A DNA stretch of 64,000 bases from an uncultured actinomycete (GCA_942491345.1 CALOAN010000020.1:257671-321670), one strand, 5' to 3'. Shown: positions 1 through 36,819, counted from the first letter of the stretch. Translations and numbers: made by a program. Notes: generated from the sequence alone by a model not told the origin.

Positions 1-469
1 GACGCTCAGGCTCAACGGTCACCCAGCTTTTCTGGCGGCACGCAACACCGTGCGCGTGATGCGCTCGCAGGAACCAAACGAATCGGGCACAAGGGGATCG
101 ATCGTCCTGGTGACGAGCGTGCTCGCGGCCAGCCCCGTCCCGTCCCACTTCGCGACTCATGCGTATGCCGCCGTCAAGGGTGCGGAGGTTTCGCTCACCA
201 CAACCATGGCGTCGTACTACGCACCCGACTTGATCCGAGTCAACGCCATCGCACCCGGCTTGATACGGACGCCGATGGCCGAACGTGCCGCAGAGGATCC
301 GGTGATCTCGGCGTATGCGGCTCGCAAGCAGCCGATGGCCGGGGGGCTGCTCGAGCCCGAAGAGGTTGCGAGCGCGGGAGCCTTTCTCCTCGGCGATGGG
401 TCGCGGCACATCACGGGACAGGTCCTCGCCGTTGACGGCGGGTGGAGCGTGACCGAGGCATCTCCCTAG
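1..469 (+). CDS. SDR family oxidoreductase, C-terminal part (5' end lies outside the window)
   Basis: Frame is open from the window edge. GSIVLVTSVLA, catalytic YAAVK (YxxxK) and IRVNAIAPGLIRTPM are classic short-chain dehydrogenase motifs. Confidence 0.8.
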   Translation, partial: TLRLNGHPAFLAARNTVRVMRSQEPNESGTRGSIVLVTSVLAASPVPSHFATHAYAAVKGAEVSLTTTMASYYAPDLIRVNAIAPGLIRTPMAERAAEDPVISAYAARKQPMAGGLLEPEEVASAGAFLLGDGSRHITGQVLAVDGGWSVTEASP

Positions 470-484
470 GTCGGCAGAGCCGGG

Positions 485-496
485 TTGTCTAGACAA
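485..496. promoter_or_regulatory. Perfect 12-bp palindrome TTGTCTAGACAA; candidate GntR/HutC (DasR/NagR dre-like) operator upstream of deoC
   Basis: Read directly from the sequence, 29 nt upstream of the deoC ATG. Resembles the dre core GGTCTAGACC. Related copies at 2900-2911 and 16413-16424. Confidence 0.45.
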
Positions 497-524
497 GTCG
501 ACGGCAACATGCGATGATCCCCGG

Positions 525-1229
525 ATGCAACCCACATCACTCACCGTCGCGGACGTCACGTATGAAGAACTTGCAGCGATGATCGATCACTCGCTGCTCA
601 AACCGGAACTCACCAACGATGAGGTGATCGCCGGATGTGAACTGGCAAACCGATACGCGGTCGTTTCGGTGTGTGTGCGTCCGTGTGACGTCGCGCTCGC
701 CGCCGAGATCCTCGCCGATTCATCTGTCGCCGTCGGAACCGTTGTGGCGTTTCCCCACGGCGACAGCACAACCGCAACCAAGGTTTTCGAGGCAGAACGA
801 GCGATGGCCGACGGCGCCGTTGAGCTCGACATGGTGCTCAACATCGGCTGGCTCAGGTCGGGGGAGTACACCCTCGTCGAGGAAGACATTCGCGCGGTTG
901 TGAGCGTCGCCGGTGACGACGCCATCGTGAAGGTCATCTTTGAAAACGCCTACCTCGACGACACCCAGAAGGTGGCCGCATGCAAGGCGACGGAAGCGGC
1001 AGGTGCCCACTTCGTCAAGACGTCCACCGGCTACGCCGCGACCGGGGCAACACTCGAGGATCTCCGACTCATGCGTGCGTCGGTCTCACCGGCCGTCAAG
1101 GTGAAGGCGGCTCACGGTGTTCGGACGCTTGATGATCTCCTTGCCGTGCGCGAGGTGGGTGCCGCCCGCACGGGCGCAACCCAGACGGCTGTCATGCTCG
1201 ACGACTACCGCGAACGCACTTCGAGCTGA
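525..1229 (+). CDS. deoC: Deoxyribose-phosphate aldolase
   Basis: 234 aa. IDHSLLKPE N-terminal motif, VKVIFE and FVKTSTGY Lys-containing strands typical of class I DeoC aldolases. Confidence 0.85.
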   Translation: MQPTSLTVADVTYEELAAMIDHSLLKPELTNDEVIAGCELANRYAVVSVCVRPCDVALAAEILADSSVAVGTVVAFPHGDSTTATKVFEAERAMADGAVELDMVLNIGWLRSGEYTLVEEDIRAVVSVAGDDAIVKVIFENAYLDDTQKVAACKATEAAGAHFVKTSTGYAATGATLEDLRLMRASVSPAVKVKAAHGVRTLDDLLAVREVGAARTGATQTAVMLDDYRERTSS

Positions 1230-2131
1230 GCTCGCCCCGCCAGCGCTGCGCCGATCGCTCCCGCCCAGTTGCCGAGTTCGGCGGGTACAACCGCCACCTC
1301 ATCTGCCGGCGCCAGTGTCACGCGGGAGCGCATCGCTTCCCGGATGGGGCCGAGAACAAGCTCCCCGGATGCGACGATTCCGCCTCCGATGACGATACAA
1401 GATGGTCCGAGGAGAGTGACGACGTTGGCAAGCCCAATGCCGATGTACGTGGCCACGGTGTTGATGGCGGCTAAACACGCCTCGTCGCCATCTGCAGCTC
1501 GCTGATACACCGTGGCGGCGTCCGGCTGTCCGGCCAACGCGGCGAGTTTGTCGGCACGAGCTAGTGCCTCGACGCACCCGTGGTTTCCACATCCGCACAG
1601 CGGCCCGTCGGGCAGAACGATCTGGTGGCCGACCTCGCCACCCGTGCCGAATTCACCGAGGTGGATGCGCCCGTCGATCATGATGCCGCCCCCGATTCCG
1701 GTCCCAAGCGTGAGTCCAATCAGCGTGTGGCAGCCCCGCCCTGCCCCTACGGTTCCTTCGGCCAGAACAAACGCCCGAGCGTCGTTGATGAGTGCGGTCG
1801 GAACACCGAGCGCCTCGCCAACCGGATCTCGTAGGGAGTGGCCAGGCCACGGTCCGGGAAGGTTCGGGAAGAGGACGATCCGTCCGGTGTCCGGCTCAAA
1901 GAGACCGGGCACGCCGAGGCCGGCGGCATCGATTGGACCGATCGTCTCGATCGTCTCGAGGCCAACCTCGATCAGGCGGTCGGTGACCCCTCGGGGCCCG
2001 CGATCGGCATAGGTTGCGTACTGCCCGGTCGACACCACCTCGGGAGTTGCTGCGTCCTCGGAGCTTTCCACAACGGCAACCTTGATGTTCGTGCCGCCGA
2101 GATCGAGCCCCAAGAAGCGTCGGGCCATCAT
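1205..2131 (-). CDS. ROK family sugar kinase (glucokinase/N-acetylhexosamine kinase-like)
   Basis: 308 aa. LGLDLGGTNIKVAVV ATPase motif and ROK zinc motif CGCGNHGCVEA. No N-terminal HTH. 4-nt overlap with the upstream GntR gene. Confidence 0.85.
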   Translation of the reverse strand: MMARRFLGLDLGGTNIKVAVVESSEDAATPEVVSTGQYATYADRGPRGVTDRLIEVGLETIETIGPIDAAGLGVPGLFEPDTGRIVLFPNLPGPWPGHSLRDPVGEALGVPTALINDARAFVLAEGTVGAGRGCHTLIGLTLGTGIGGGIMIDGRIHLGEFGTGGEVGHQIVLPDGPLCGCGNHGCVEALARADKLAALAGQPDAATVYQRAADGDEACLAAINTVATYIGIGLANVVTLLGPSCIVIGGGIVASGELVLGPIREAMRSRVTLAPADEVAVVPAELGNWAGAIGAALAGRAQLEVRSR

Positions 2132-2850
2132 GAGGGGAGTCCCTCATCGTCTCGGTAGAGGACGGCGCTGAACGCGTATCGCTCGGCAGCGTAGAACGTG
2201 GAGGTGTGTTCGAGGGGAGCGCCGCGCTGGTCGAAGATCGTTCGGACTTCAGTCAAGATGATGCCGTTCGAAGGCAGTTCGAGCAGGTCCCGCTCGCGTT
2301 TCGTGGCCATCCTCGCACCAACCTCCGCGAGTGCGCGGGTTGGCACCCTGCCTGCCCGTTCGAATGCTGCGTGGAGTGATCCAGATGTGAGGTCCTCGTC
2401 GAGAAGTCCGGAGTTGTCTGCAGGGATGACCGCGTGCTCGATGGCCATTGGGATGCCGTCGGCAAGCCTGAGACGCTCGAGCAGGATTGCGGGCGCACCC
2501 GCCGCGATCCCAAACTCCGCAGCGACGTCCACCGTGATCTCCGCCGGCCCTGCCCGAAGGACCCGTGACGACGGCACCCTCCCGCGGAGGCGCATGCTCT
2601 CTGAGAACGAGAGGGGAGAACCGAGTGCACGAGGAACGCGACGACCACTGACGAACGTACCGGATCCGCGTTTGCGTTCGAGGAGGTGTTCGTTCGCGAG
2701 GACCATGACCGCTTGCCGGGCGGTCATGCGACTGACGCCGAAGCGCTCGCAAAGCTCTGCATCCGAAGGGAGCCGCTCGCCCGGTTCAGCGCTCGCGACG
2801 AGTTCTCGCAGGTAGTCCGCGATCTCGAGGTATCGGGGGCCCGAACTCAC
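2128..2850 (-). CDS. GntR family transcriptional regulator, HutC subfamily (UTRA effector domain)
   Basis: 240 aa. Winged-helix segment LPSDAELCERFGVSRMTARQAV followed by a UTRA-like C-terminal domain. Divergent from the SIS gene. Confidence 0.85.
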   Translation of the reverse strand: MSSGPRYLEIADYLRELVASAEPGERLPSDAELCERFGVSRMTARQAVMVLANEHLLERKRGSGTFVSGRRVPRALGSPLSFSESMRLRGRVPSSRVLRAGPAEITVDVAAEFGIAAGAPAILLERLRLADGIPMAIEHAVIPADNSGLLDEDLTSGSLHAAFERAGRVPTRALAEVGARMATKRERDLLELPSNGIILTEVRTIFDQRGAPLEHTSTFYAAERYAFSAVLYRDDEGLPS

Positions 2851-2899
2851 TTCATGCTCCTCCGGCTCATCTTGACGGTCTCATTGCGCCATCCCTAAC

Positions 2900-2911
2900 C
2901 TGTCTATACAT
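2900..2911. promoter_or_regulatory. dre-like imperfect palindrome CTGTCTATACAT in the GntR/SIS divergent promoter region
   Basis: The core TGTCTATACA differs by one base from the TGTCTAGACA core at 486-495. Lies in the 99-bp gap between divergent start codons. Confidence 0.4.
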
Positions 2912-2949
2912 TTACTCACCCTGGATGGAAGAAGCAAGGCGATACTCGA

Positions 2950-3759
2950 ATGCACGGTAGCGAAGACCCGGTAGCGGACGTACGCGGACGTTGGATCACG
3001 GAGGCGATCAGGCTTCTCGAGTTCGTCCAGGGGACGCAGATGGAGGCCATCGGATCGGCAGCCGAGATCTGCGCCGAGGCGATCGGCTCCGGCGGCCTCG
3101 TTCACCTGTTCGGGACGGGCCATTCGCGTATCCCGGTCGAAGAGATGTTCCCCCGATACGGGTCCTACCCCGGGTTCAATCCGATCGTCGAACTCTCGAT
3201 GACGTTCCACACCCAGATCACGGGTGCCAACGGTCAACGACAAGCGATGTACATCGAGCGTGTAGAGGGGCTTGCCGAAGAGATCCTCGCCAACTTCGAC
3301 TTCGGGCCGAACGACGCCATGATCATCTACAGCTCGAGTGGATCGACCGCCGTCCCGATCGAGATGGCAATGGGAGCCCGAAACCGGGGGCTTCCGGTCA
3401 TCGCCGTCACGTCGATTGCCCATTCCTCGGCCACGGCGTCCGGCCACTCTTCCGGTACCCGTCTGATGGACCATGCCGACATCGTCATCGACCTCGGCAC
3501 CCCGCCCGGCGATTCGCTCATCGAGATCGACGGGCCGGAGACACGCGTCGGACCAGGATCGACGCTATCGAATATCGCGATCACCAACGAGATCAAGGTC
3601 CAAACAGCGGCGCTTCTGGCGGCTCGGGGTGCGCTCCCTCCTGTCTTGAGTGGTGCGGCCCTGGTCGGGGAAGAGCGCTCAGGTGAGCTGTTCAAAGCCG
3701 CATACGCCGAACACTCGCGTCGACTGGCCAACGTTCTCGCGAAACCGGAACCATCCTGA
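2950..3759 (+). CDS. SIS (sugar isomerase) domain protein, UPF0309-like
   Basis: 269 aa. GLVHLFGTGHSRIPVEEMFPRYGSYPGF and IIYSSSGSTAVPIE are typical of the single-SIS UPF0309 family. Confidence 0.75.
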   Translation: MHGSEDPVADVRGRWITEAIRLLEFVQGTQMEAIGSAAEICAEAIGSGGLVHLFGTGHSRIPVEEMFPRYGSYPGFNPIVELSMTFHTQITGANGQRQAMYIERVEGLAEEILANFDFGPNDAMIIYSSSGSTAVPIEMAMGARNRGLPVIAVTSIAHSSATASGHSSGTRLMDHADIVIDLGTPPGDSLIEIDGPETRVGPGSTLSNIAITNEIKVQTAALLAARGALPPVLSGAALVGEERSGELFKAAYAEHSRRLANVLAKPEPS

Positions 3760-3764
3760 GAACA

Positions 3765-3796
3765 CCGCAATGAGCACCACGTGCACTCGATTGCGG
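3765..3796 (+). terminator. Hairpin just after the SIS gene stop (stem CCGCAAT/ATTGCGG); possible terminator
   Basis: 7-bp perfect stem, extendable with a bulge, beginning 6 nt after the stop codon. No U-tract. Confidence 0.3.
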
Positions 3797-3855
3797 CCAG
3801 GGCCACAACCAGGGGGTTGGAGCATCCGTTCGCGCGCCCCAAGCGGACTTTGTTC

Positions 3856-3868
3856 TTGACACAGTCAA
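3856..3868. promoter_or_regulatory. Inverted repeat TTGAC-ACA-GTCAA upstream of the ROK regulator gene
   Basis: Perfect 5-bp arms, 11-23 nt upstream of the candidate start codons (3879 TTG / 3891 ATG). Contains a TTGACA -35-like hexamer. Confidence 0.25.
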
Positions 3869-3878
3869 TAGTTGCTGG

Positions 3879-5081
3879 TTGAGTGACGGAATGGGCGAAG
3901 GCGCAGCGAGCGGATCACCGGGCAACCTCCTCGATGTGATTCGTCGCCGCAGCCCCATCACCAGGGCCGAACTCGTATCAACGACGGGGCTTGCGCGCTC
4001 CACCATCTCGCAGCGCGTCGACTATCTGATCGCCAAGGGTTTCGTCGGTGAGGTGGGCGAGGCCGTCTCCACCGGAGGTCGACCTCCGACCATGCTCGGC
4101 TTCAACGCGGAGTCCGGCATCGTGCTCGTGGCCGACCTCGGCGCCACCCATTCCCGCCTTGCAGTGTGTGACCTCGAGGCGACTCCCCTCGCCGAGGCGT
4201 GCCGCGATCTGGACATTGCGGACGGCCCCGAGATCGTGCTTGCGTGGGTACTCGAGACGTTCGAAGCCCTCACGGCGGACGCCGGACACTCTGCCAGCGA
4301 GGTCCGCGCCATCGGCATTGGTGTGCCGGGACCGGTGGACTTCGCAGCCGGGCGGGCGATCCATCCACCGATCATGCCGGGATGGGATGACTATCCGATT
4401 CGCGAGCGCTTCGAAGAGCGATACAGCGTTCCCGTGCTCGTCGACAACGACGTCAACATCATGGCGCTGGGCGAATACTGGGTCATGCAGCCGCAGGTCG
4501 AAGACCTGATCTTCGTCAAGGTCGGCACCGGAATCGGCTCCGGCCTCATCGTCGGCGGCCACCTCCAGCGCGGTGCGCGCGGTGCGGCCGGCGACATCGG
4601 CCACATCCAGGCCGGTTCGGCTGACGTGATGTGTCGCTGCGGGAACCCGGGCTGCCTCGAAGCATCTGCCGGTGGAGCGGCCATTGCGCGGGAACTCCGT
4701 GCGAATGGGTACGAAACAAACGGCAGCCGCGATGTTGTCGCTCTGGTCCAGGCCGGGAATCGCGACGCCATCCAGGCGGTGCGCCACGCAGGTCGACTCA
4801 TCGGCTCGGTGCTCGCAGCCACCGTCAATCTGCTCAATCCGGCCGTGATCTCGATCGGCGGAGATCTCGCCGAAGCGGGACAGCAGCTGCTCGCCGGCAT
4901 TCGTGAGACCGTCTATCAACGGTCCACGGCGCTGAGCACGAGTGAACTCCAGATCATCACCGGGGCACTCGGTGACCGAGCCGGGATCATTGGTGCCGCT
5001 GCATTGGTCATCGAACACATCTTCGACCCCGATCGGATCGACGTCGCCCTTGTGACTGCGAACAACGGAGGAGACTCTTGA
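3879..5081 (+). CDS. ROK family transcriptional regulator (NagC/XylR-like)
   Basis: 400 aa. N-terminal HTH ([24 protein letters not shown]), a ROK sugar-binding body and the zinc motif [11 protein letters not shown]. Start may be the ATG at 3891. Confidence 0.85.
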
Positions 5082-9949: not shown

Positions 9950-9962
9950 GAGAGGAACCATT

Positions 9963-11117
9963 GTGCGTTTGAGTCGAATCACAGCCGGAGTGGTCGGCGT
10001 CGGGTTCATCGGCGTCGCCCATATCGAGGCCCTCCGTCGCCTCGGAGTCGACGTGGCCGGGGTTGTCGGCTCGTCACCTGAGCGAGCACGAGCCAAGGCC
10101 GATGCAGCGGACCTGCCCGAGGTCTACCCAAGTGTGGAGGCGCTCGCGGACGATCCGGATATCGATGTTGTGCACATCGCGAGCCCGAACAACGTCCATG
10201 CGGATCAAGTACGAATGTGTCTTGCCGCGGGCAAACACGTGGTCTGCGAAAAACCGCTGGCGCTGACCTCGGCGGACGCTGCGGATCTGGTTGAGCGTGC
10301 CCGTGAGGCAGGCGTCGTCAACGCCGTTTGCTTCAACATCCGTTTCTATCCGCTCAACCATCAGATGGCCGCGATGGTGCGCTCAGGCGAGATCGGTGAG
10401 CCGCTGTTTGTGACCGGGAGCTACCTCCAGGACTGGCTGCTGCTCGAGACGGACTGGAACTGGCGCCTCGTTTCCGAGGAGGCTGGTCCGCTGCGGTCGG
10501 TTGCCGATATTGGATCCCACTGGCTCGATCTCGCTCGCTTCATCACCGGCAAGCGGGTTGTCGAGGTGATGGCCGACCTTCACACATTTGTCGCCGTGCG
10601 AAAGCACCCCGTAGGCCCTGTCGAGACGTTCGCGGCGACAACGGACGACGAGGAGCTGATCGAAGAAGAGATGTCGAGCGATGACGGTGCCGGGATCCTT
10701 CTCCGCTTCGAAGACGGCACACGAGGCACTTTGTCCATCGCCCAGACAGCGGCAGGTCGGAAGAACTCGGTTTCGATCGAGGTCGACGGCTCTGCGTCCG
10801 CGTTGTCGTGGTTCTCGGAGGACCCCGACCGCCTCTGGATCGGTCACCGGGGCAAGCCGAACGAGATCCTGCAGCGCGATCCGTCCATCCTGGCGCCCGA
10901 CGCCGCCCGCATCGTTGGCTATCCGGGCGGCCACGTCGAGGGCTACCCCGACACGTTCCGCGCACTCTTCAAAGAGGTCTATCAGGATGTGGCCAACGGG
11001 AGACCCGCGCCGGATCCGACCTATCCAACATTCGCCGATGGGCTCGATGCCCTGCTCGTAACCGAGGCGGTCGCCAGAAGCTCACAGGAGCAACGATGGA
11101 TCGCCGTTCAACGATGA
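9963..11117 (+). CDS. Gfo/Idh/MocA family oxidoreductase
   Basis: Rossmann N-terminus ITAGVVGVGFIGVAH and the EKP motif (VVCEKPLA). GTG at 9963 follows a GAGAGGAA RBS. The upstream part of track ORF 9861 overlaps the permease gene and looks non-coding. Confidence 0.85.
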   Translation: MRLSRITAGVVGVGFIGVAHIEALRRLGVDVAGVVGSSPERARAKADAADLPEVYPSVEALADDPDIDVVHIASPNNVHADQVRMCLAAGKHVVCEKPLALTSADAADLVERAREAGVVNAVCFNIRFYPLNHQMAAMVRSGEIGEPLFVTGSYLQDWLLLETDWNWRLVSEEAGPLRSVADIGSHWLDLARFITGKRVVEVMADLHTFVAVRKHPVGPVETFAATTDDEELIEEEMSSDDGAGILLRFEDGTRGTLSIAQTAAGRKNSVSIEVDGSASALSWFSEDPDRLWIGHRGKPNEILQRDPSILAPDAARIVGYPGGHVEGYPDTFRALFKEVYQDVANGRPAPDPTYPTFADGLDALLVTEAVARSSQEQRWIAVQR

Positions 11118-11127
11118 GGAGGAAGAA

Positions 11128-12042
11128 GTGAAGCTGGGTCTCTTGACCGCACCGTTCCCTGCCACCCCGCTCGATGCGGTGGCCGACTGGACCGCAGAAA
11201 ACGGGTTCACCACTATCGAGATAGCCTGCTGGCCGGCGTCAAGTGGCGACGCCCGGCGCTACGCAGGAACGAGTCACATCGACGTCGACGGATTGTCCGA
11301 CGCGCAGGCCGGCGAGATCGTCGACCGCATGAATTGGAAAGGTCTCGAGATCTCAGGTCTCGGCTACTACCCCAACCCGCTCCATCCCGATCTGGAGCAC
11401 TCCAGGATGGTGATCGACCACCTGAAGAAGGTGATTGTCGCCGCCGCGAAGATGCAGGTACCGGTGGTCAACACATTCATCGGTGCCGACCGTGCCCTCA
11501 CCCAGGAAGAGAACTGGGAGAAGGCTAAGCAAGTCTGGCCCGAGATCATCGCGGCCGCCGAGAACGAAGGCGTCAAGATCGCGATCGAGAACTGTCCGAT
11601 GATCTTCTCGAGCGATGAGTGGCCTGCCGGGCACAACCTGGCCTACAACCCAACGATCTGGCGTCGCATGTTCGACGAGTTCGGGGAGACGATCGGGCTC
11701 AACTTCGACCCGTCCCACCTGGTTTGGCTGATGATCGATATCGAGCGGGCCATACTGGAGTTCGGTGAACGTTTCTATCACTTCCAGGCCAAGGACGTGA
11801 TGATCGACTACGAGGGCCTCTACGAGAACGGGTCTCTCTCTTCGGGCATCGGGTGGCAGATTCCCCGTCTGCCCGGGCTGGGCCATGTCGACTGGGGCGT
11901 GGTCTTCTCCGCGCTCTACCGCGTTGGGTACGACGGGCCGATCATCATCGAGCACGAGGACCGTGGCTTCGAGGCCACCGATGAGTTGGTCAAGCGCGGC
12001 TTCCTGCTCGCCCGGGACGTGCTGGCACCCTACGTCCACTGA
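11128..12042 (+). CDS. Sugar phosphate isomerase/epimerase (xylose isomerase-like TIM barrel)
   Basis: 304 aa. IEIACWP, KIAIENCP and IIIEHED are consistent with the AP-endonuclease-2/xylose-isomerase-like barrel family. Confidence 0.8.
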   Translation: MKLGLLTAPFPATPLDAVADWTAENGFTTIEIACWPASSGDARRYAGTSHIDVDGLSDAQAGEIVDRMNWKGLEISGLGYYPNPLHPDLEHSRMVIDHLKKVIVAAAKMQVPVVNTFIGADRALTQEENWEKAKQVWPEIIAAAENEGVKIAIENCPMIFSSDEWPAGHNLAYNPTIWRRMFDEFGETIGLNFDPSHLVWLMIDIERAILEFGERFYHFQAKDVMIDYEGLYENGSLSSGIGWQIPRLPGLGHVDWGVVFSALYRVGYDGPIIIEHEDRGFEATDELVKRGFLLARDVLAPYVH

Positions 12043-19717: not shown

Positions 19718-21076
19718 TCAAGCGGGTTGGGTATCGGGCGCACGGATCGGGAGCGAAACGGTGAACGTCGTCTGTTCCGGGTTCGAGTCGACCTCGATCG
19801 TTCCCCGATGCTGGTTGGCCACGATGTCGTAGACCGTGTCGAGACCGAGGCCGGTGCCGCGTCCCGGTTCCTTCGTCGTGAAGAACGCCTCGAAAATGCG
19901 GTCCCTGACCGGCGGCGGGATCTCGGGGCCGTTGTTTGCGACCGTGATCACGATGGACTCGTCGCGAGTTCTTGCCGTCAGCGTGATCTGGCCATTATCG
20001 GTCCCGGCGTCGTGGATAGCGTCAGCCGCGTTGTCGATGAGGTTCGTCCATACTTGATTGAGTCTGCTTCCGTAGGCCTGGATTGTCGGCAGGCCGGATT
20101 CGTAGTCCCGGACCACCGTGAGGTCGCTCGTCTTCGACTTGAGGATCAGCAGGGTGTCTTCGATCCCGCGTGCGACGTCAACGTTCTGGACGGGAGCCTG
20201 ATCTAGATAGGAGTACGACTTGAGTGCTGCGACCAGGTCGCTGAGCCGCCTCGAGCCCTCCGCAACTTCGGCGACGAGCGCGTCGACCTCAGCGCGTGAG
20301 GCCAGTACCTCAACGACTGCTGCCGCCGTTGCTTCGTGCAGATCGAGGTCGGCGGCTCGGTAGCCGGCCTCTGCGAGAACCGGAGCCACACGCCACGCTT
20401 CCTCGATCCCGAATCCGTCGAGCGCCGCCTCGAGGCTGTCCTCGTTTTCGGCTCGTTCCATTGGGCTTGCTGCCGACGGTCCGGCTGCCGAAGGACCGGG
20501 AACAAGAGCATCGTGTGGGATCGCAGCCTCGGCCCTCACTCTTCGTTCGACGGCAGCTGCGACCAGCGATGATCCCCGTGTGACGGCAGCCGCCGGGTTG
20601 TTCATTTCGTGAGCGAGGCCCGCAGTGAGCACCCCGATCTGAGCCATGTGCTCGGACTGGCGAAGTCGCGATTGCTGCTCCCGCCACCGAGCGATGAACA
20701 CGTTGAACAGAGCGTGCACTACGCGGACATCCGATTCGAGCAGGGCATCGAGCGCTGCTTTCGGGATCGAGACGAGTTCGGTGTCACCGAGCGCACGAGC
20801 CGTCGCGCTCCGCGGTTCGCCGGTGAGGAGCGACATCTCGCCCACGATCTGCCCGGGTCCGGAGATTGCGATACGCACGGACTGATCGGCCGACGCCTTG
20901 AGAATCTCGATCTCTCCGGATGTGACGACGTACGCCGTGTCGCCCGCGTCGCCCTCTTCGAACAGCGTGGCGCCCCGCAGCAGCACACAGGTTGTGACGT
21001 CACTGCTCAGGCGGGCGAGCGCGTCATCATCGAGACCGGAGAACAGATCGACGGAGCGAAGGTCGAATGAGTTCAC
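19718..21076 (-). CDS. Cyclic-nucleotide-binding domain histidine kinase
   Basis: 452 aa. N-terminal cNMP-binding fold (LFEEGDAGDTAYVVTSGEIEI, GEMSLL), H-box LAHEMNNP, and HATPase N/G boxes (NLIDNA, GTGLGL). Confidence 0.85.
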   Translation of the reverse strand: MNSFDLRSVDLFSGLDDDALARLSSDVTTCVLLRGATLFEEGDAGDTAYVVTSGEIEILKASADQSVRIAISGPGQIVGEMSLLTGEPRSATARALGDTELVSIPKAALDALLESDVRVVHALFNVFIARWREQQSRLRQSEHMAQIGVLTAGLAHEMNNPAAAVTRGSSLVAAAVERRVRAEAAIPHDALVPGPSAAGPSAASPMERAENEDSLEAALDGFGIEEAWRVAPVLAEAGYRAADLDLHEATAAAVVEVLASRAEVDALVAEVAEGSRRLSDLVAALKSYSYLDQAPVQNVDVARGIEDTLLILKSKTSDLTVVRDYESGLPTIQAYGSRLNQVWTNLIDNAADAIHDAGTDNGQITLTARTRDESIVITVANNGPEIPPPVRDRIFEAFFTTKEPGRGTGLGLDTVYDIVANQHRGTIEVDSNPEQTTFTVSLPIRAPDTQPA

Positions 21077-22725
21077 ACGGTATCGAGGTATCGATGAACG
21101 AGCGTGACAGCAACCGAGCCTTCACCGACAGCAGACGCAACTCGCCGGACGGCCCCTTCCCGGATGTCGCCTGCTGCAAACACCCCGGGAGCCGAGGTCT
21201 CGAGCGGGAACGGATCGCGGCTCAGGGTCCAATCAGATGTGAACGTTGTGACGTCGGAGCCCGTGTAGATGAAACCCCGCTCGTTCATGGCCAGGGTGCC
21301 TTCGAGGAAAGAAGAATGCGGCACAGCTCCGACGAAGATGAACAATGCAGAAGCGGGACGGGTTTCTTCCGTTCCGGCTGCAAGGTTCTGGAGGCGGATC
21401 GACTCGACCGTTGTGGTGCCCTCGACGTCGACGACGCGAGTGCCGGTGAGCACTTCGATGTTCTCGATGGCGGCGATCTGATCGACCAGATACTGCGACA
21501 TCTTCTGTTCGAGCGACTCGGAGCGCACCACCATCGTGACCTTCGAAGACGTCTTCGAGAACATGACGGCGGCCTGCCCTGCCGAGTTGGCGCCTCCGAT
21601 CACATAAACGTGGCGGTCCTGGTAGGTCGCCGCTTCGGTTGCCGCCGCTCCGTAGTACACGCCGGCACCTTCGAATCGGGCGTACCCGGGAACCTCGAGC
21701 TTCCGCACGGTCATACCGCTTGCGATCACGAGGGCGCGGCATTTCAGCTCGGTCTTGTCCGTGAGGACGATCGTCTTGACCGTGTGACCGATCCGGACGT
21801 CGGCGACTTCGGCCGGCGTGATCAATTCCGCTCCGAGGCGGGTTGCCTGGGCAATCGCTCGACGTGCCAGATCGGCGCCACTCACGCCCTTCGGAAAGCC
21901 GAGGTAGTTCTCAATGCGAGAGCTCGTCCCGGCCTGGCCGCCCGGTGCTTCTCGTTCGAGCAGCACGGTCGAGAGGCCTTCGGAGGCGCCGTATACCGCG
22001 GCGGCGAGTCCGGCGGGCCCGCCGCCGATGATGGCGAGATCGTAGAACGGCGCCTCAGGCGTTGAGTGAATCCCGGCTGCCGCCGCCAATTCGGGTTTTG
22101 ACGGCTGGAGCAGGATCGAGTCGTCCGGCAGGATGACCACAGGGAGTCTGGATTCGGTGGCGTGAGCAGCAGCAGCTGTTGCGGCGGCTTCTGTGTCTCT
22201 CTCGATATCGAGGAATCGGTATGGCACCTCGTTGCGGGCCAGGAACGCCTTGATCTCATAGGTTGCCGGCGACCACGTGGTGCCCAGCACGCTGATCCCG
22301 TCGAACGGCACGTCGGCGTGCGCTTGCCAGTCGTCGAGAACGTCATCGAGCACGGGATAGAGGCGCTCTTCGGGCGGGCTCCACGGTTTGAGGAGATACT
22401 GATCGAGACCGACATCGTTGATCGCCTGGATCGCCGCTTCAGTGTCGGCGTATGCGGTCAGGAGCAGTCGCTTGGCTTGCGGGTAGACCTCTTGCGCCGC
22501 AAGGAGGAATTCGGTGCCTGTCATTTCCGGCATGCGCTGGTCGACGACGAAGGCGGCAACCGTTCTGGACCGAAGCTTGAGCTCTCGCACCGTCTCGAGT
22601 CCCTCGGGTCCTGAGGTCGCCGCAACAATCTGATACGTAGAGCCGTACTGCGATCGGAGGTCGCGGCGAACCGCCCCCAGCACCTGCGGGTCGTCGTCGA
22701 CGGCGAGAATCACCGGTTTGCTCAT
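21073..22725 (-). CDS. Fused response regulator / glutaredoxin-like / thioredoxin-reductase-like flavoprotein
   Basis: 550 aa. REC domain (ILAVDDD, FVVDQRMPEMTG, KPW). FAD fold YDLAIIGGGPAGLAAA, NAD(P) fold VYVIGGANSAGQAA, and C-terminal GVFAAGD. 4-nt overlap with the downstream kinase gene. Confidence 0.85.
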   Translation of the reverse strand: MSKPVILAVDDDPQVLGAVRRDLRSQYGSTYQIVAATSGPEGLETVRELKLRSRTVAAFVVDQRMPEMTGTEFLLAAQEVYPQAKRLLLTAYADTEAAIQAINDVGLDQYLLKPWSPPEERLYPVLDDVLDDWQAHADVPFDGISVLGTTWSPATYEIKAFLARNEVPYRFLDIERDTEAAATAAAAHATESRLPVVILPDDSILLQPSKPELAAAAGIHSTPEAPFYDLAIIGGGPAGLAAAVYGASEGLSTVLLEREAPGGQAGTSSRIENYLGFPKGVSGADLARRAIAQATRLGAELITPAEVADVRIGHTVKTIVLTDKTELKCRALVIASGMTVRKLEVPGYARFEGAGVYYGAAATEAATYQDRHVYVIGGANSAGQAAVMFSKTSSKVTMVVRSESLEQKMSQYLVDQIAAIENIEVLTGTRVVDVEGTTTVESIRLQNLAAGTEETRPASALFIFVGAVPHSSFLEGTLAMNERGFIYTGSDVTTFTSDWTLSRDPFPLETSAPGVFAAGDIREGAVRRVASAVGEGSVAVTLVHRYLDTV

Positions 22726-22827
22726 CTGCTCCCCAGGGTGGTCGCGCTCGATCCTATCGCGATGGCGTACACCACGGAGGCCGACGGCTTCGCTACGCTC
22801 AGAACTTCTCGGGAGGAGGGTAGAGCG

Positions 22828-23625
22828 GTGGCCGAAGGTGCTCGTATCGTGGTGCTCGGCACTCGCGGGTCAACTCCTGTGTCCGGGGCTGAGTTCGTTC
22901 GGTACGGCGGGAACACGTCATCGTTCGCGATTTCGATCGGCAGCCGAGTTGTCGGGTTCATCGATGCCGGAACCGGGCTGTTGGCCTACCCATCGTGCGA
23001 CCTCGAGCTCGCGCCATCGATCGACGTGTTTCTCACGCACTACCACTGGGATCACATCCAGGGACTCTCCATGCTCGAGGCGCTGTGGTCGGGAGACGCT
23101 GAGATCGTGATCCATGGTCCCGGCGGACCGGAGCGTGCCTTGACGGCCGTGATCACTCCTCCATGGTTCCCGGTATCGCTCGCCGAGGCTCCGGGGGTTC
23201 GTTTCGAGACCATCGGTCGGCCCGTCGAGATCCAGGGGCTGGCTATCACGCCGTTCGAGATCGAGCATCCGCAGGGTGCTGTCGGCTACCGCGTCGACGG
23301 GCCACGCGCGAGTGTCGCGGTGGTGACGGATCACGAGGCCGGAACCCAGCGGGACGTTTCGATCACTCGGGCAATTCGCGGAGTCGACGTGCTCATTCAC
23401 GATGCTCAGTACACGCCGGATGAGATGCCGATTCGCCGGGGATGGGGCCACTCGACCTGGGAGGGAGCCGTTGATGCCGCCGAGGCAGCGGGCATAGAGC
23501 GGCTGCTGCTGACGAGCCTGGATCCCCGCACCACGGATGACGACGCTGAGTCGATCTTGGCGCTTGCCAGACGACGGTTCCGTAACACAGATATCGCCGC
23601 GCCGGGCGTTGTGGTGCCTCTGTGA
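22828..23625 (+). CDS. MBL-fold metallo-hydrolase
   Basis: HYHWDHIQG (HxHxDH) motif. GTG at 22828 follows a GGAGGAGG RBS. The track ORF opens at 22738. Confidence 0.8.
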   Translation: MAEGARIVVLGTRGSTPVSGAEFVRYGGNTSSFAISIGSRVVGFIDAGTGLLAYPSCDLELAPSIDVFLTHYHWDHIQGLSMLEALWSGDAEIVIHGPGGPERALTAVITPPWFPVSLAEAPGVRFETIGRPVEIQGLAITPFEIEHPQGAVGYRVDGPRASVAVVTDHEAGTQRDVSITRAIRGVDVLIHDAQYTPDEMPIRRGWGHSTWEGAVDAAEAAGIERLLLTSLDPRTTDDDAESILALARRRFRNTDIAAPGVVVPL

Positions 23626-24830
23626 AGTTCGCGGCGATCGCACCACCGCGCCTGAGGACCGCCGAGGAATCGGAACGTACCGCGACCTGGCTCGAGCTCT
23701 TCTACGACCTTGTTTTCGTCGCCGCCGTTGCGATGATGGGGACGCGGCTCGTCAGCGACGTCTCATGGGCCGGCGTCGCTTCCTATCTCGCGTATTTCGC
23801 GCTCGTGTGGTGGCTGTGGGCGAGCCACACGTTCTACGCCGACCGCTACGACACCGACGATCTCATCTATCGCCTTCTCGCCGGCGCCCAAATGGTGGCT
23901 GTGGCCGTGATTGCCGTTTCGCTCTCATTGGGCGAGGCGGGATCGACGCAGGTATTTGCGCTCGGATACACGGCGACCCGGTTCACGCTGTTGCTCCTGT
24001 ATGCCAGGGCATACCGCCACGTGCCCGGCACCCGTGCGTTGGTGCGGGGCTATCTCATCGGCTTCGGGACGGCGTCGGCGATCTGGTTGGTTTCCATTGC
24101 GACCCCGGAGCCTGCGCGGTTCTGGCTCTGGGGCGTCGCGTTCGCGGTCGATCTAGCGACCCCGTACGCAGTCCGAAAGATCCAAGCTGCATCCCCGCTC
24201 GACCGGTCACACCTGCCGGAGCGGTTCGGCCTGTTCACCATCCTGGTGCTTGGCGAATCGATCGTCGCCGTGACCGTCGGGCTGAGCCATGTTGCCTGGC
24301 AAACGCCAACAACAATCGTGGGAATCCTCGGCCTTGGAGCGGCGACATGTCTGTGGTGGATCAACTTCGAACACCTCGATGGCTCGGTCATACGGAGGCG
24401 AGGGGAGGGGAAGAACTGGCGCCCGACCGTGTGGATCTACAGCCACCTTCCGCTCGCTGCGGCTCTGGCTATGTTCGGGGTATCCGTCGAGCTCGCCATC
24501 ATCGGAGCCGATCACGGTCATGAATACTCGAGCAATGATCGGTGGCTCCTCGCGGCGTCCGTGGCGCTTGCCTACGCAGCAATGGCCGGAATCCAGATTG
24601 CCTCGGTGCGAGCTGGGCAAGAACACCTTCGGGCATCGGCCATTCGCGCTCGACTCGCAGGGATCCCGCTGGTGCTCATCATCGGCTTGATTCCGGGTCT
24701 CGGTGCGGTGTGGACCATGGCGCTCGTCACGGCAGTCTGCACCGCAGAGGTGCTGGTGGACCTCTTCGCTGCGAACCCCGAATTCATCAGCGCCCTGTCG
24801 GCATCCCTCCGTGTGGAAGACGATTCCTGA
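23622..24830 (+). CDS. Low temperature requirement protein A (LtrA) family membrane protein
   Basis: 402 aa polytopic protein. The N-terminal ATWLELFYDLVFVAAV is the characteristic LtrA motif. GTGA overlap with the MBL gene. Confidence 0.8.
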   Translation: MKFAAIAPPRLRTAEESERTATWLELFYDLVFVAAVAMMGTRLVSDVSWAGVASYLAYFALVWWLWASHTFYADRYDTDDLIYRLLAGAQMVAVAVIAVSLSLGEAGSTQVFALGYTATRFTLLLLYARAYRHVPGTRALVRGYLIGFGTASAIWLVSIATPEPARFWLWGVAFAVDLATPYAVRKIQAASPLDRSHLPERFGLFTILVLGESIVAVTVGLSHVAWQTPTTIVGILGLGAATCLWWINFEHLDGSVIRRRGEGKNWRPTVWIYSHLPLAAALAMFGVSVELAIIGADHGHEYSSNDRWLLAASVALAYAAMAGIQIASVRAGQEHLRASAIRARLAGIPLVLIIGLIPGLGAVWTMALVTAVCTAEVLVDLFAANPEFISALSASLRVEDDS

Positions 24831-24879: not shown

Positions 24880-25224
24880 CTAAAGGTCGGTTCGGACCGT
24901 TGTAGCCTCGGTGTCGCGAGCGAATCGCTTGAGGACGCTGCGATTGAGACAATGCCACGTGCGGGGGCCATCGTCTTCAGTCCGGAGGATGTTCGCCGTC
25001 CTGAGGATTCGGAGGTGCTCGGAGACGGTGGACTGAGCGAGTGCCAGGTGATCGGAAATCTGTCCGACGGTGTGAGGCTTGCACTCCTGGAAGAACTCGA
25101 TGATCTCCATGCGCGCCGGGTGGCCCATCGCCTTGGCGATCGCGGCCATCTCCTCACAGCTGAGTGGCGCCGGATCAACCGGTGGGTCGTCATCGAGGCA
25201 CGCCTGCGGAGGGCTGAGATCCAT
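24880..25224 (-). CDS. ArsR/SmtB family transcriptional regulator
   Basis: 114 aa. AKAMGHPARMEIIEFF...VGQISDHLALAQSTVSEHLRILR is the winged HTH of the ArsR family. Confidence 0.85.
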   Translation of the reverse strand: MDLSPPQACLDDDPPVDPAPLSCEEMAAIAKAMGHPARMEIIEFFQECKPHTVGQISDHLALAQSTVSEHLRILRTANILRTEDDGPRTWHCLNRSVLKRFARDTEATTVRTDL

Positions 25225-25392: not shown

Positions 25393-25410
25393 TTGTGAAC
25401 CCAATCACAA
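25393..25410. promoter_or_regulatory. Perfect CRP/GlxR-type site TTGTGA-ACCCAA-TCACAA
   Basis: TGTGA-N6-TCACA consensus matched exactly at 25394-25409, 22 nt upstream of the ATG at 25432 and 10 nt upstream of the AGGAGG RBS. Confidence 0.5.
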
Positions 25411-25431: not shown

Positions 25432-26139
25432 ATGGCAAAACGGCTCCGAACCCTCGGAATCGCCCTATCAGTAATCGGCCTGCTCTTCGTCGTCGGAGGT
25501 GGAGTGGCCTACACCCAGGTGCAGGACGGATACAACTCACTCCAGTCGTTCAGCGAAGCGCAGAACGTACAACTCAGCTACAACGAAGACGGACAACTCA
25601 TCGATCGCGGAACCACCGAAGGTGCCGATGCGATCATGATGCTGTTGACGGAGGACTGGGGCTACCCGGTCAAGGAAGCGGATCTCGATCCCAACGACCC
25701 GCTCGTGAACACGGCTTCTGAGTACATGTTCCAGATGGCGACGATCACTTACCACACACTGTACGGCACCCAGACCGTGGTGCTGACTGAGCCTGTTGAG
25801 TACAACGGCGAGACCTTCGCCGCTGGCGAGTACCAGTTTGACGTCAACGGCTTCTACTGGACCGACTTCGATCGGATGCATCCGATCGAGGGCCCGGCAC
25901 GTGACCAGGCGTGGAACGGAACAGCACATGCTCTGATCGCCGAACTCGGCGTAGGGACCGTGACCCATTCCGCGCTCCAACTCGGCCTTGCACTCGCAGG
26001 GACGCTGGCAGCGATCGGCCTCACAGTCCTGGTCGCCGGCCTCGGTTTGGTCTGGGCGACGAAGGAAGAGAAGGCCACGAAGCCGCAGCCGCCGGCAACC
26101 GAGCCTGACGCGAAGAAGGAACTCGAGCCGGTTGGCTGA
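25432..26139 (+). CDS. Hypothetical membrane-anchored protein (N- and C-terminal TM segments, extracytoplasmic middle)
   Basis: 235 aa. AGGAGG RBS. TM segments LGIALSVIGLLFVVGGGVAY and LALAGTLAAIGLTVLVAGLGLVW. No recognised domain. Confidence 0.6.
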   Translation: MAKRLRTLGIALSVIGLLFVVGGGVAYTQVQDGYNSLQSFSEAQNVQLSYNEDGQLIDRGTTEGADAIMMLLTEDWGYPVKEADLDPNDPLVNTASEYMFQMATITYHTLYGTQTVVLTEPVEYNGETFAAGEYQFDVNGFYWTDFDRMHPIEGPARDQAWNGTAHALIAELGVGTVTHSALQLGLALAGTLAAIGLTVLVAGLGLVWATKEEKATKPQPPATEPDAKKELEPVG

Positions 26140-36141: not shown

Positions 36142-36819
36142 TCAGCGCCCGGCTGCGGCCGCGAGAGCGGCGTCATCGGCGCGCCTGATCACTCGATATC
36201 CGGTCTCAAGCGCTCCCTCACCCCGGAGCTCCGACAGAGCCTGGTTGACCGACTGCCGGCTCGCGCCCAGCAACCCGGCGAGGCTCGCCTGTGACAAGTG
36301 AAGATCGCCATATCGGTCTGCCTCGTCGAGCACCATCTCCGCGACCTGTTCCTTGATCGTGCCCCGCATCAATCTGAGCACGCGTCGTTGTGTCGACTCG
36401 AGCTGGTTGAGTCCGGCCACGAGCCACCGGATGGCGATCCTCGGATGCTCGAACAACACCGGGAGGAGCTTCGACCGGTCGAGGCGGAACGCCTCGACCG
36501 GTGAAACCGCACGCGCGCTCGAGATGTAGGGCTGGCCGCGCAGCAGCGCGATATCGCCGATAACGGCGCCGGGGCCAACCCGACCAACAACAAGGCGGCC
36601 GCTTCTTCGGTTGCGAAACAGCTCGACGTCGCCGGTCCGAATCACGTATGCCGCATCCGAGTCGGCACCCTCCTTGAAGAGGTGGGTGCCCGGGTACTTC
36701 TCGATGTAGCTGCCGGCATCCGAGAGTGCGGCAAGGTCGGCTGCCGTGAGTGGTAGGTAGTCCGTACGTCCAAACGATCGGGCGAGCCAGGCAAGGTGTT
36801 GTTCTTCGGCGGGATCCAT
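36142..36819 (-). CDS. Crp/Fnr family transcriptional regulator
   Basis: 225 aa. cNMP-binding fold (LFKEGADSDAAYVIRTGDVELF, GDIALL) and a C-terminal HTH (LSQASLAGLLGASRQSVNQALSEL). Confidence 0.85.
   Translation of the reverse strand: MDPAEEQHLAWLARSFGRTDYLPLTAADLAALSDAGSYIEKYPGTHLFKEGADSDAAYVIRTGDVELFRNRRSGRLVVGRVGPGAVIGDIALLRGQPYISSARAVSPVEAFRLDRSKLLPVLFEHPRIAIRWLVAGLNQLESTQRRVLRLMRGTIKEQVAEMVLDEADRYGDLHLSQASLAGLLGASRQSVNQALSELRGEGALETGYRVIRRADDAALAAAAGR

Follow-up and report, generated by a model that had tools for sequence, protein, structure and literature searches.

What does a response regulator do when its output domain is a flavoprotein instead of a DNA-binding domain, and which signal would reach it through its kinase? 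The question is raised by two genes on the minus strand of a 64,000-nt stretch of DNA from an uncultured actinomycete (GCA_942491345.1, CALOAN010000020.1:257671-321670), the whole of which we call the window. The upstream gene (21073..22725), with an ATG start and GGGGAG 5' of it, encodes a response-regulator flavoprotein of 550 aa, and the downstream gene (19718..21076), with a GTG start, a soluble histidine kinase of 452 aa that carries a cyclic-nucleotide-binding (CNB) domain; the regulator's stop codon and the kinase's start codon share the letters GTGA, a 4-nt overlap. A first-pass annotation had described them as coupled minus-strand genes, the first encoding a receiver (REC) domain joined to a glutaredoxin-like segment and a thioredoxin-reductase-like FAD/NAD(P)H module, the second a soluble kinase with the CNB domain as its sole sensor, and the open reading frames (ORFs), Pfam and NCBIfam searches and a hydrophobicity scan agree with that description. 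It had further proposed that cAMP or cGMP acts through a phosphorelay on a redox enzyme. From this proposal the cognate pairing stands, and cyclic-nucleotide gating is plausible within the window's own clade, but thiol-disulfide chemistry does not stand, nor do cyclic nucleoside monophosphates (cNMPs) as the signal of the whole family; what had been overlooked is that both redox-active cysteine motifs are absent from the regulator. Our preferred reading, whose chances we rate as about even, is that the pair forms a self-contained cytoplasmic two-component pathway, in which the output would be a flavoenzyme switched directly by phosphorylation and not a transcription factor.

The regulator begins with a REC domain (residues 6-118; 22372..22710; Pfam Response_reg PF00072, 54.7 bits; all coordinates within the two genes are on the minus strand) that is nearest to those of RpfG/NosR-type regulators. 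Both the sequence and the family alignment show its phosphorylation pocket to be complete, with D10/D11, the phospho-acceptor D62, T90 and K113, and its motifs read VDDD, VVDQR, LLTAY and LLKPW. It is followed by a glutaredoxin-fold segment (residues ~140-218; 22072..22308), recognised from the mycoredoxin family TIGR02200, which residues 144-214 match with an E-value of 1.6e-7, under the family cut-off, and from the topology of an AlphaFold model, in which residues 144-217 are arranged as beta-alpha-beta-alpha-beta-beta-alpha. The remaining residues, 226-550 (21076..22050), delimited by alignment with thioredoxin reductases (TrxRs) of the PDB and by family conservation, form the FAD/NAD(P)H module and include a Pyr_redox_2 match in Pfam (residues 228-536, 121 bits). 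As had been claimed from the sequence at the outset, the output is thus a flavoprotein with a TrxR-type fold: the FAD motifs GGGPAG and GVFAAGD and the second Rossmann motif GGANSAGQAA are all retained, and the family alignment shows them to be invariant across phyla. The model of the whole regulator has a pLDDT of 79.9.

So is this protein a thioredoxin reductase, as its relatives are named? A true thioredoxin-disulfide reductase under phospho-control, feeding thiol systems together with its glutaredoxin domain, has the JGI and NCBI names in its favour, and the low-Mr TrxRs (TrxB, EC 1.8.1.9) are the best matches of the C-terminal 325 residues in sequence (PDB, E 1e-48) as well as in structure (Foldseek, TM 0.84), sharing the two-domain FAD/NAD(P)H fold and the motifs GxGxxG, GGQ...EN[YW]xGFP, GGxNSA and G[VI]FAAGD. 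Moreover, polysulfide acts as an inducer of the Streptomyces coelicolor member sco7298 ('trxB3') (PMC9952706), which is the sole functional datum found for the family. However, the residues that would do the chemistry are gone. Where TrxRs have C-x-x-C-D, the regulator has G-A-A-A-T-E, such that C135, C138 and D139 of the Escherichia coli enzyme align with G359, T363 and E364 (G359-A-A-A-T363-E364), and the CPYC site of the glutaredoxin fold is replaced by the cysteine-free W-S152-P-A-T155, leaving a single cysteine, C329, in all 550 residues. Nor is this peculiar to the window. Scanning with the family alignment, one genome per species, gave 80 loci from Actinomycetota, Chloroflexota, Gemmatimonadota, Bacteroidota, Cyanobacteria, Acidobacteriota, Verrucomicrobiota, several proteobacterial groups and others, and the CxxC of the TrxR module is missing from all 80 as well as from all 150 representatives of clusters at 50% identity, most of which carry RWSxxSHE in the glutaredoxin fold, with CxxC turned into SxxS/T. 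The score against the TrxR equivalog family TIGR01292 (241.3 bits) is likewise short of the cut-off of 343.45. Because the redox cysteines are lost from both modules, the core is neither a TrxR nor any other disulfide reductase, and the database name 'thioredoxin-disulfide reductase' is, judging from these alignments, almost certainly wrong for the family. With no protein dithiol available for disulfide reduction, and CxxC gone in every member inspected, a phospho-controlled TrxR is contradicted by the sequence and scarcely credible; function as a thioredoxin reductase or glutaredoxin was ruled out, CxxC being found in neither module.

What the core has instead, as far as sequence can tell, is a remodelled and conserved site facing the flavin, in a flavoprotein derived from TrxR. 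The motif GV[YF]YGAxxxEA occupies the position of the former disulfide in 150/150 representatives and 80/80 genomic loci, and Y358, G359, E364 and R401 are invariant in the cross-phylum alignment. The last of these is the only arginine left of the motif that binds the 2'-phosphate of NADPH in TrxRs, HRRxxxR (HRRDTLR), which here reads VRSxxxE (VRSESLE). Unlike low-Mr TrxRs, the regulator furthermore adds the N-terminal REC domain and the glutaredoxin fold. A thioredoxin-fold domain fused to a TrxR-fold flavoprotein is also found in AhpF and NTRC, and AhpF is a top Foldseek match over the whole length; yet these have a CxxC electron relay in both modules, where the window's regulator has lost those cysteines from each, and the arrangement of the domains fails to superpose (rmsd 22-26 Å). 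A third comparison is with the TrxR-type ferredoxin-NADP+ reductases (FNRs) such as Bacillus subtilis YumC and Chlorobaculum FNR, which share the TrxR fold without CxxC and are NAD(P)H:acceptor electron-transfer enzymes, as our working model has it for the regulator. YumC has the motif G-V-H-Y-A at the site of the former disulfide, resembling GV[YH]Y[GA]. Still, with E-values of 1e-15, where TrxRs reach 1e-48, the sequences of these enzymes are much farther away, and in the FNR structure 3lzw, aligned over residues 5-315 of 332, a further 17 residues follow, in which lies the C-terminal segment whose aromatic residue stacks on the flavin, whereas the regulator ends 2 residues past the alignment. 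Membership of the TrxR-type FNRs was ruled out on this missing C-terminal extension and the far weaker similarity.

We consider the core most likely to be an NAD(P)H:acceptor oxidoreductase, because both dinucleotide sites are conserved, because a conserved new motif has taken the place of the former active site, and because stand-alone cores without any sensor occur. Candidates for the acceptor are O2, a quinone, ferredoxin or flavodoxin, or a small Cys/His-rich zf-UBP protein, to which we return below; the gene of the acceptor is not fixed in position.

The kinase is built around a single sensor. Its N-terminal CNB beta-barrel (residues 1-116; 20729..21076), the only sensor domain that Pfam finds, matches cNMP_binding (PF00027) over residues 33-116 with 82.1 bits (gathering cut-off 27.5), and PDB sequences of the CNB domains of PKA-R, CRP and Bd1971 type with E-values of 1e-13 to 1e-19; matches of the kinase in the PDB also include CckA and ZraS. 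The phosphate-binding cassette, GEMSLLTGEPRSATA, has the form G79-E80...R89-S-A, with both the ribose-contacting Glu and the phosphate-contacting Arg, and both are retained throughout the close homologues of the kinase (116/116), the pattern of the clade being GEMSLLTGEPR[SNT]A. In the AlphaFold model (pLDDT 84.3, with the barrel at ~90), the C-helix of the CNB domain runs without a break into a long helix, residues 117-185, that bears the H-box AH156EMNNP and belongs to the dimerisation and phosphotransfer region (20198..20728), as delimited by the secondary structure of the model and by H-box alignments. Its second dimerisation helix comprises residues 251-293, and at the tip of the hairpin lies a confidently modelled two-helix insert of ~65 residues (186-250; 20327..20521). 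The sequence of this insert, with the motif ...ERED.L..WL...G....W.LAP.L...G..., is conserved in every partner kinase inspected, across phyla, and the insert may offer this regulator a docking surface of its own. The catalytic ATP-binding domain (residues 297-445; 19742..20188), assigned by Pfam, PDB alignment and box motifs, contains a HATPase_c match (residues 337-445, 83 bits) as well as the N box NLIDNA, the F box FEAFFTTK and the G2 box GTGLGL. Neither kinase nor regulator has a hydrophobic stretch of the kind found in membrane segments: in 19-residue windows their hydrophobicity maxima are 1.34 and 1.36, compared with 2.33 for the membrane protein LtrA encoded nearby.

Do these two proteins belong together? 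It had been set down beforehand that a pair not kept as neighbours in other genomes would refute the proposed circuit, and we searched the ORFs of the 80 loci with the proteins of the window and a profile of the kinase family. A kinase of the same family lies directly adjacent on the same strand in 42 of 46 loci with a canonical REC domain, and three of the other four end at a contig edge. Among loci with a degenerate REC domain, an N-terminal CNB domain or the core alone there is no adjacent kinase at all (0/34). The two genes adjoin each other in Actinomycetota, Chloroflexota, Gemmatimonadota, Bacteroidota, Cyanobacteria, Acidobacteriota, Verrucomicrobiota and Burkholderiales, that is, in at least 8 phyla, and further cyanobacterial look-ups gave the identical pairing, so that the objection set down beforehand falls away. 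That kinase and regulator are a cognate pair is supported because the genes overlap by 4 nt and because adjacency follows the canonical receiver in this way. In 43 of 46 kinase loci, counting in four copies of the window locus (L001-L004), the alignment sets in at the CNB region; the three off this pattern have, respectively, a receiver replacing the CNB domain, an unassigned N-terminus and partial coverage. The receiver-bearing partner kinase is that of a Chloroflexia metagenome-assembled genome (MAG) (L020 5449-6867, plus strand). Separately, Synechocystis sp. PCC 7509 has a gene for a PAS-containing hybrid kinase immediately 5' of its regulator gene (L089 3689-5980, plus strand), besides the CNB kinase downstream.

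The flavoprotein core itself is found in a wider range of settings than the pair. Glutaredoxin fold and TrxR-like module occur with a canonical REC domain, a degenerate one, an N-terminal or C-terminal CNB domain, or alone: a CNB domain is fused N-terminally in 26 representative clusters and C-terminally in one, and 11 have only the core. Since the same core comes with varied regulatory domains or with none, the core would be the regulated unit, and comparison of these architectures indicates that a CNB-fold sensor has become linked to the flavoprotein core repeatedly, be it within a single chain or by way of a phosphorelay. Receivers without the acidic pocket, the Thr or the Lys make up 77 of 123 complete representative clusters (P0246-P0386), and a kinase gene is never adjacent to members with such pseudo-receivers (e.g. 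L066, L068, L077, L078 and L082).

How, then, would the pathway run? A ligand would bind the N-terminal CNB domain of the kinase, most probably cAMP or cGMP in the Acidimicrobiia clade to which the window belongs; that the window comes from an Acidimicrobiia MAG is indicated by the names given to identical and near-identical proteins. Because the C-helix of the CNB domain continues into the His156 helix of the model, binding could shift the balance between autophosphorylation and phosphatase activity. The phosphoryl group would then be handed on to Asp62 in the receiver of the regulator, and the phosphorylated REC domain may alter its packing on, or the dimerisation of, the glutaredoxin and TrxR-like core, by which electron transfer would be switched. 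Allosteric switching of a fused partner is what is also seen in response regulators with enzymatic output (CheB, PleD/WspR, RpfG, RsbU-type) and in CNB effectors (CRP, PKA-R and the cAMP-activated EAL protein Bd1971); in contrast to these response regulators, the output in the window would be a flavin oxidoreductase. In the literature searched, which is an incomplete library, we found neither a characterised receiver-controlled flavin oxidoreductase nor a characterised histidine kinase with a CNB domain as its sole sensor.

A number of observations weigh against this pathway. It should be noted that the literature searched yielded no experiment on any member of the family, and that the placement of the domains relative to each other in the AlphaFold model is uncertain (pTM 0.53-0.55). 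Furthermore, the G1 box of the kinase (residues 381-385) is NNGPE and not DxGxG, with the adenine-contacting Asp lost; the consensus in the window's clade is ENNGPxIPP, whereas elsewhere the family has D(N/T/D)GPGIP, with the Asp kept. Such a change might weaken or alter nucleotide binding or kinase activity. The pair could be a decaying or kinase-dead relic that has lost its signalling output in this clade, and the replacement of HRR by VRS in the NADPH motif, as well as a relative (L090) in which the kinase gene is disrupted and ltrA is not called, would fit decay. We nevertheless hold a relic to be very improbable: the H, N, F and G2 boxes are intact, as are the signalling residues of the receiver and the cassette, and both proteins are strongly conserved, with a regulator identity of 72-94% across many MAGs and ~55% over the full length to cyanobacterial members. 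The block of four genes that includes the pair also persists while its outer flanks change.

More serious for the signal is what becomes of the cassette elsewhere. Its Arg, and often its Glu, is missing from most partner kinases outside the window's clade, including those of Streptomyces, Nocardia, Mycolicibacterium, Bacteroidota and Acidobacteriota, and from the N-terminally fused CNB domains, while the CNB fold of these cassette-degenerate proteins is still recognisable to Pfam. Outside the 116 close homologues, a canonical cassette was found in L005, in L030 and in the C-terminal CNB domain of P0245. Cyclic nucleotides can hence not be the signal for the whole family, because the cassette is degenerate in most other clades, and the ancestral ligand may have been something else. 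In the window itself, a tblastn search of the 64 kb with two actinobacterial class III cyclases found no cyclase at E < 1e-3. Could the CNB domain here, then, sense a ligand other than cAMP or cGMP, as in CooA, CprK and PrfA, or only dimerise or regulate, with architecture and phosphorelay otherwise the same? The other residues at the Glu and Arg positions of most partner kinases across phyla, as in GAMQAYVRQAYNNS and GYLPFSRGTNYQV, the missing Arg in direct fusions of a CNB domain with the core and the negative cyclase search all speak for it, and we regard it as a possibility of some substance, though on balance an unlikely one. A textbook cassette in 116 of 116 kinases of the clade is hard to account for unless phosphate-ribose is bound, the CNB domain of the window's kinase matches those of PKA-R and CRP type (E 1e-15 to 1e-19), and two relatives encode cyclases alongside the module. 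These relatives are L087, where two class III cyclase genes adjoin the block (1-1180, minus strand; 2671-3900, plus strand), and L092, where one does so, co-oriented with a gene for a truncated globin (9951-11027 and 11024-11392, both minus strand); among the 80 loci, those of other clades have no cyclase neighbours. Direct fusions of a CNB domain with this core in sister proteins likewise count in favour of cNMP gating. We therefore keep cyclic-nucleotide sensing by the kinase as a reasonable inference from these sequences for the Acidimicrobiia clade only.

The annotation had also called cyclic-nucleotide signalling prominent in the window, pointing to a Crp/Fnr regulator and a perfect CRP box. 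Both are present, but the case for prominence is weak, given the negative cyclase search and a Crp/Fnr protein without the cassette Arg. This ORF (36142..36819, minus strand) has a CNB fold and a helix-turn-helix, its cassette is GDIALLRGQPYISSA, and its recognition helix reads SRQSVNQ, as against the classical RE(T/S)V of CRP proteins. With the missing Arg and the atypical helix, there is no clear sign that it is a cAMP-CRP or that it binds the box, and judged by these residues a classical cAMP-CRP is unlikely. The box, TGTGAACCCAATCACA (TGTGA-N6-TCACA; 25394..25409), is the only perfect match in the window and ends 22 nt upstream of the ATG at 25432 of a 235-aa protein without a Pfam match; an ArsR-family gene (24880..25224) diverges from the intergenic region that holds the box.

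The third set of doubts concerns the flavoprotein end of the pathway. Two of the three arginines at the TrxR site for the 2'-phosphate of NADPH are gone, which makes the use of the cofactor uncertain, and the window has no conserved acceptor gene, a search of the 64 kb for zf-UBP having been negative. Instead of being the output, the flavoprotein might be a second input: its FAD would report the NAD(P)H/NAD(P)+ ratio or redox state, and the regulator would combine this with its phosphorylation and act through contacts with the kinase, the zf-UBP protein or another partner, without turnover. A scaffold retained while its thiol relay was lost, the partly eroded NADPH site and the lack of any substrate or acceptor gene universally linked to it are all compatible with such a role, and the degenerate receivers in 77 of 123 clusters suggest a diversification that is regulatory more than catalytic. 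Against this stand the invariance of both dinucleotide-binding motifs and the invariant Tyr-Gly...Glu at the old disulfide position, which looks like a maintained active site, and stand-alone cores without a sensor fit an enzyme. We judge a second input unlikely, and continue with the flavoenzyme as the output of the pathway.

Which genes might supply its partners? In the clade of the window, the pair is accompanied by two divergent genes on the plus strand: one for a metallo-beta-lactamase (MBL)-fold hydrolase (22828..23625; Lactamase_B_2 in Pfam, with the motif HYHWDH), and one for an LtrA-family membrane protein (23622..24830; PF06772, E 1.6e-81), the start codon of which overlaps the MBL stop codon by 4 nt, in the manner of translational coupling. 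This block of ltrA-MBL and regulator-kinase is kept while the outer flanks vary in L005, L085, L086, L087 and L092, with regulator identities of 72-82%, and L090 has kept the MBL gene. In the survey of 80 loci the MBL gene is absent from beside the pair in other phyla; in the cyanobacterial locus L011, ltrA lies downstream of the kinase gene. MBL-ltrA is as such an accessory specific to the window's clade. The nearest characterised relatives of the MBL protein (HxHxDH motif) are RNase Z and PhnP phosphodiesterases (PDB, E 5e-9 to 2e-6). A Pfam search up to E 10 with the window's protein and three orthologues gave only the generic Lactamase_B and Lactamase_B_2, and in NCBIfam the families RNase Z, PhnP and 'cyclic nucleotide-degrading phosphodiesterase' are matched with scores well under the respective cut-offs, so that these searches assign the protein to no particular phosphodiesterase family. 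That the enzyme degrades the nucleotide signal, as a cNMP phosphodiesterase, is speculative.

Across the wider family, all-against-all clustering of the genes in the 80 loci gave only two specific partners, the kinase and a zf-UBP protein (PF02148, ~90-120 aa), the ABC ATPases and short-chain dehydrogenases/reductases being generic. Either the zf-UBP gene immediately precedes the flavoprotein gene or it immediately follows the kinase gene in 22 of the 80 loci, which belong to several phyla and include both REC-type loci (L006, L008, L011, L015, L016, L022-L024, L030-L033, L037, L038, L040 and L046) and CNB-fused ones (L055, L056, L059, L061, L064 and L080). It was also found in three look-ups within the window's clade (L087 9019-9288, L090 10003-10269 and L091 3656-3925). 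The zf-UBP protein could be a partner or the electron acceptor of the flavoprotein. Taken furthest, a second messenger, cAMP or cGMP here and other ligands elsewhere, would act through the CNB kinase on a cysteine-less flavoenzyme with a new Tyr-Gly...Thr/Ser-Glu site, which would pass its electrons to the zf-UBP metalloprotein or give a redox signal, with the MBL enzyme of the Acidimicrobiia serving as a cNMP phosphodiesterase. As a whole this chain is quite doubtful; if it were true, nucleotide signalling would be tied directly to electron flow, without a transcription step.

The two operons diverge from a short intergenic region (22726..22827), which we analysed from its sequence and from an alignment of five related loci. 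The distance between the start codons of regulator and MBL genes, for which ~100 bp had been given, is 12, 36 or 102 bp depending on whether the latter starts at GTG 22738, ATG 22762 or GTG 22828. The last of these is the most likely, because it has a GGAGG Shine-Dalgarno sequence just 5' and yields a product of 264-265 aa, the length called in relatives. Two -10-like hexamers, both of the form TAnnnT, are conserved among the five loci: TAGGAT on the minus strand (22751..22756), on the side of regulator and kinase, and TACGCT on the plus strand (22794..22799), on the side of MBL-ltrA. They probably serve the two divergent operons as core promoters. The intergenic region has neither an inverted repeat nor a CRP box, and a scan around the operon for Rfam families, tRNAs, sigma-70-like promoters and terminators gave nothing that exceeds chance.

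How new is this system? The window locus is a member of a family that is catalogued and uncharacterised. As had been stated from the outset, the architecture has an annotated name, and the literature searched on its names, its architecture and SCO7298 offers only census tables and one expression result, with neither biochemistry nor genetics on any member. Members entered at NCBI as 'fused response regulator/thioredoxin-disulfide reductase' from Scytonema, Calothrix, Brasilonema and Nostocales have the same three-part architecture, with 55-58% identity at 100% coverage, and actinomycete members, at ~50% identity to the window's regulator, have the same adjacent kinase family. S. coelicolor SCO7297/SCO7298 appears in a Streptomyces census as a response regulator-histidine kinase pair with TrxB output (PMC9739842), a TrxB class of response regulators, as P2CS also names it, has been catalogued (PMC9953108), and the combination of REC and TrxR has been called 'Mycobacterium-like' (PMC5847659). 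On the loss of the redox cysteines in the family, or on its constant pairing with a CNB kinase, the literature searched contains no statement. The clade of the window differs from the members in Streptomyces, Nocardia and Mycolicibacterium by its canonical cNMP cassette, the NNGPx G1 box and the divergent MBL-ltrA genes, and is as such a distinct variant.

These differences matter for how genomes are read. Each of our protein searches returned at least 8,000 relatives, and thousands of entries are named thioredoxin reductase where the sequence says otherwise; because this family cannot be thioredoxin reductases, thiol-redox capacity is overcounted in Actinomycetota, Cyanobacteria, Bacteroidota and other phyla. 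At the same time, the strict pairing of flavoprotein and kinase, together with the one-component CNB fusions, makes for a compact and testable system in which a redox enzyme would be under post-translational control. The clade of the window would be the best place for testing control by cyclic nucleotides, because it combines the canonical cassette with adjacent cyclases in some relatives, and for genetics there are cultivable homologues in S. coelicolor (SCO7297/7298), Synechocystis sp. PCC 7509 and Chryseobacterium.

A last observation concerns the surroundings of the block. In L001, from a MAG with an identical regulator, a transposase gene of the IS481 family (399-1367, plus strand) lies beside the ArsR gene, and the other copies of the locus are without it, so that this insertion is strain-level variation.

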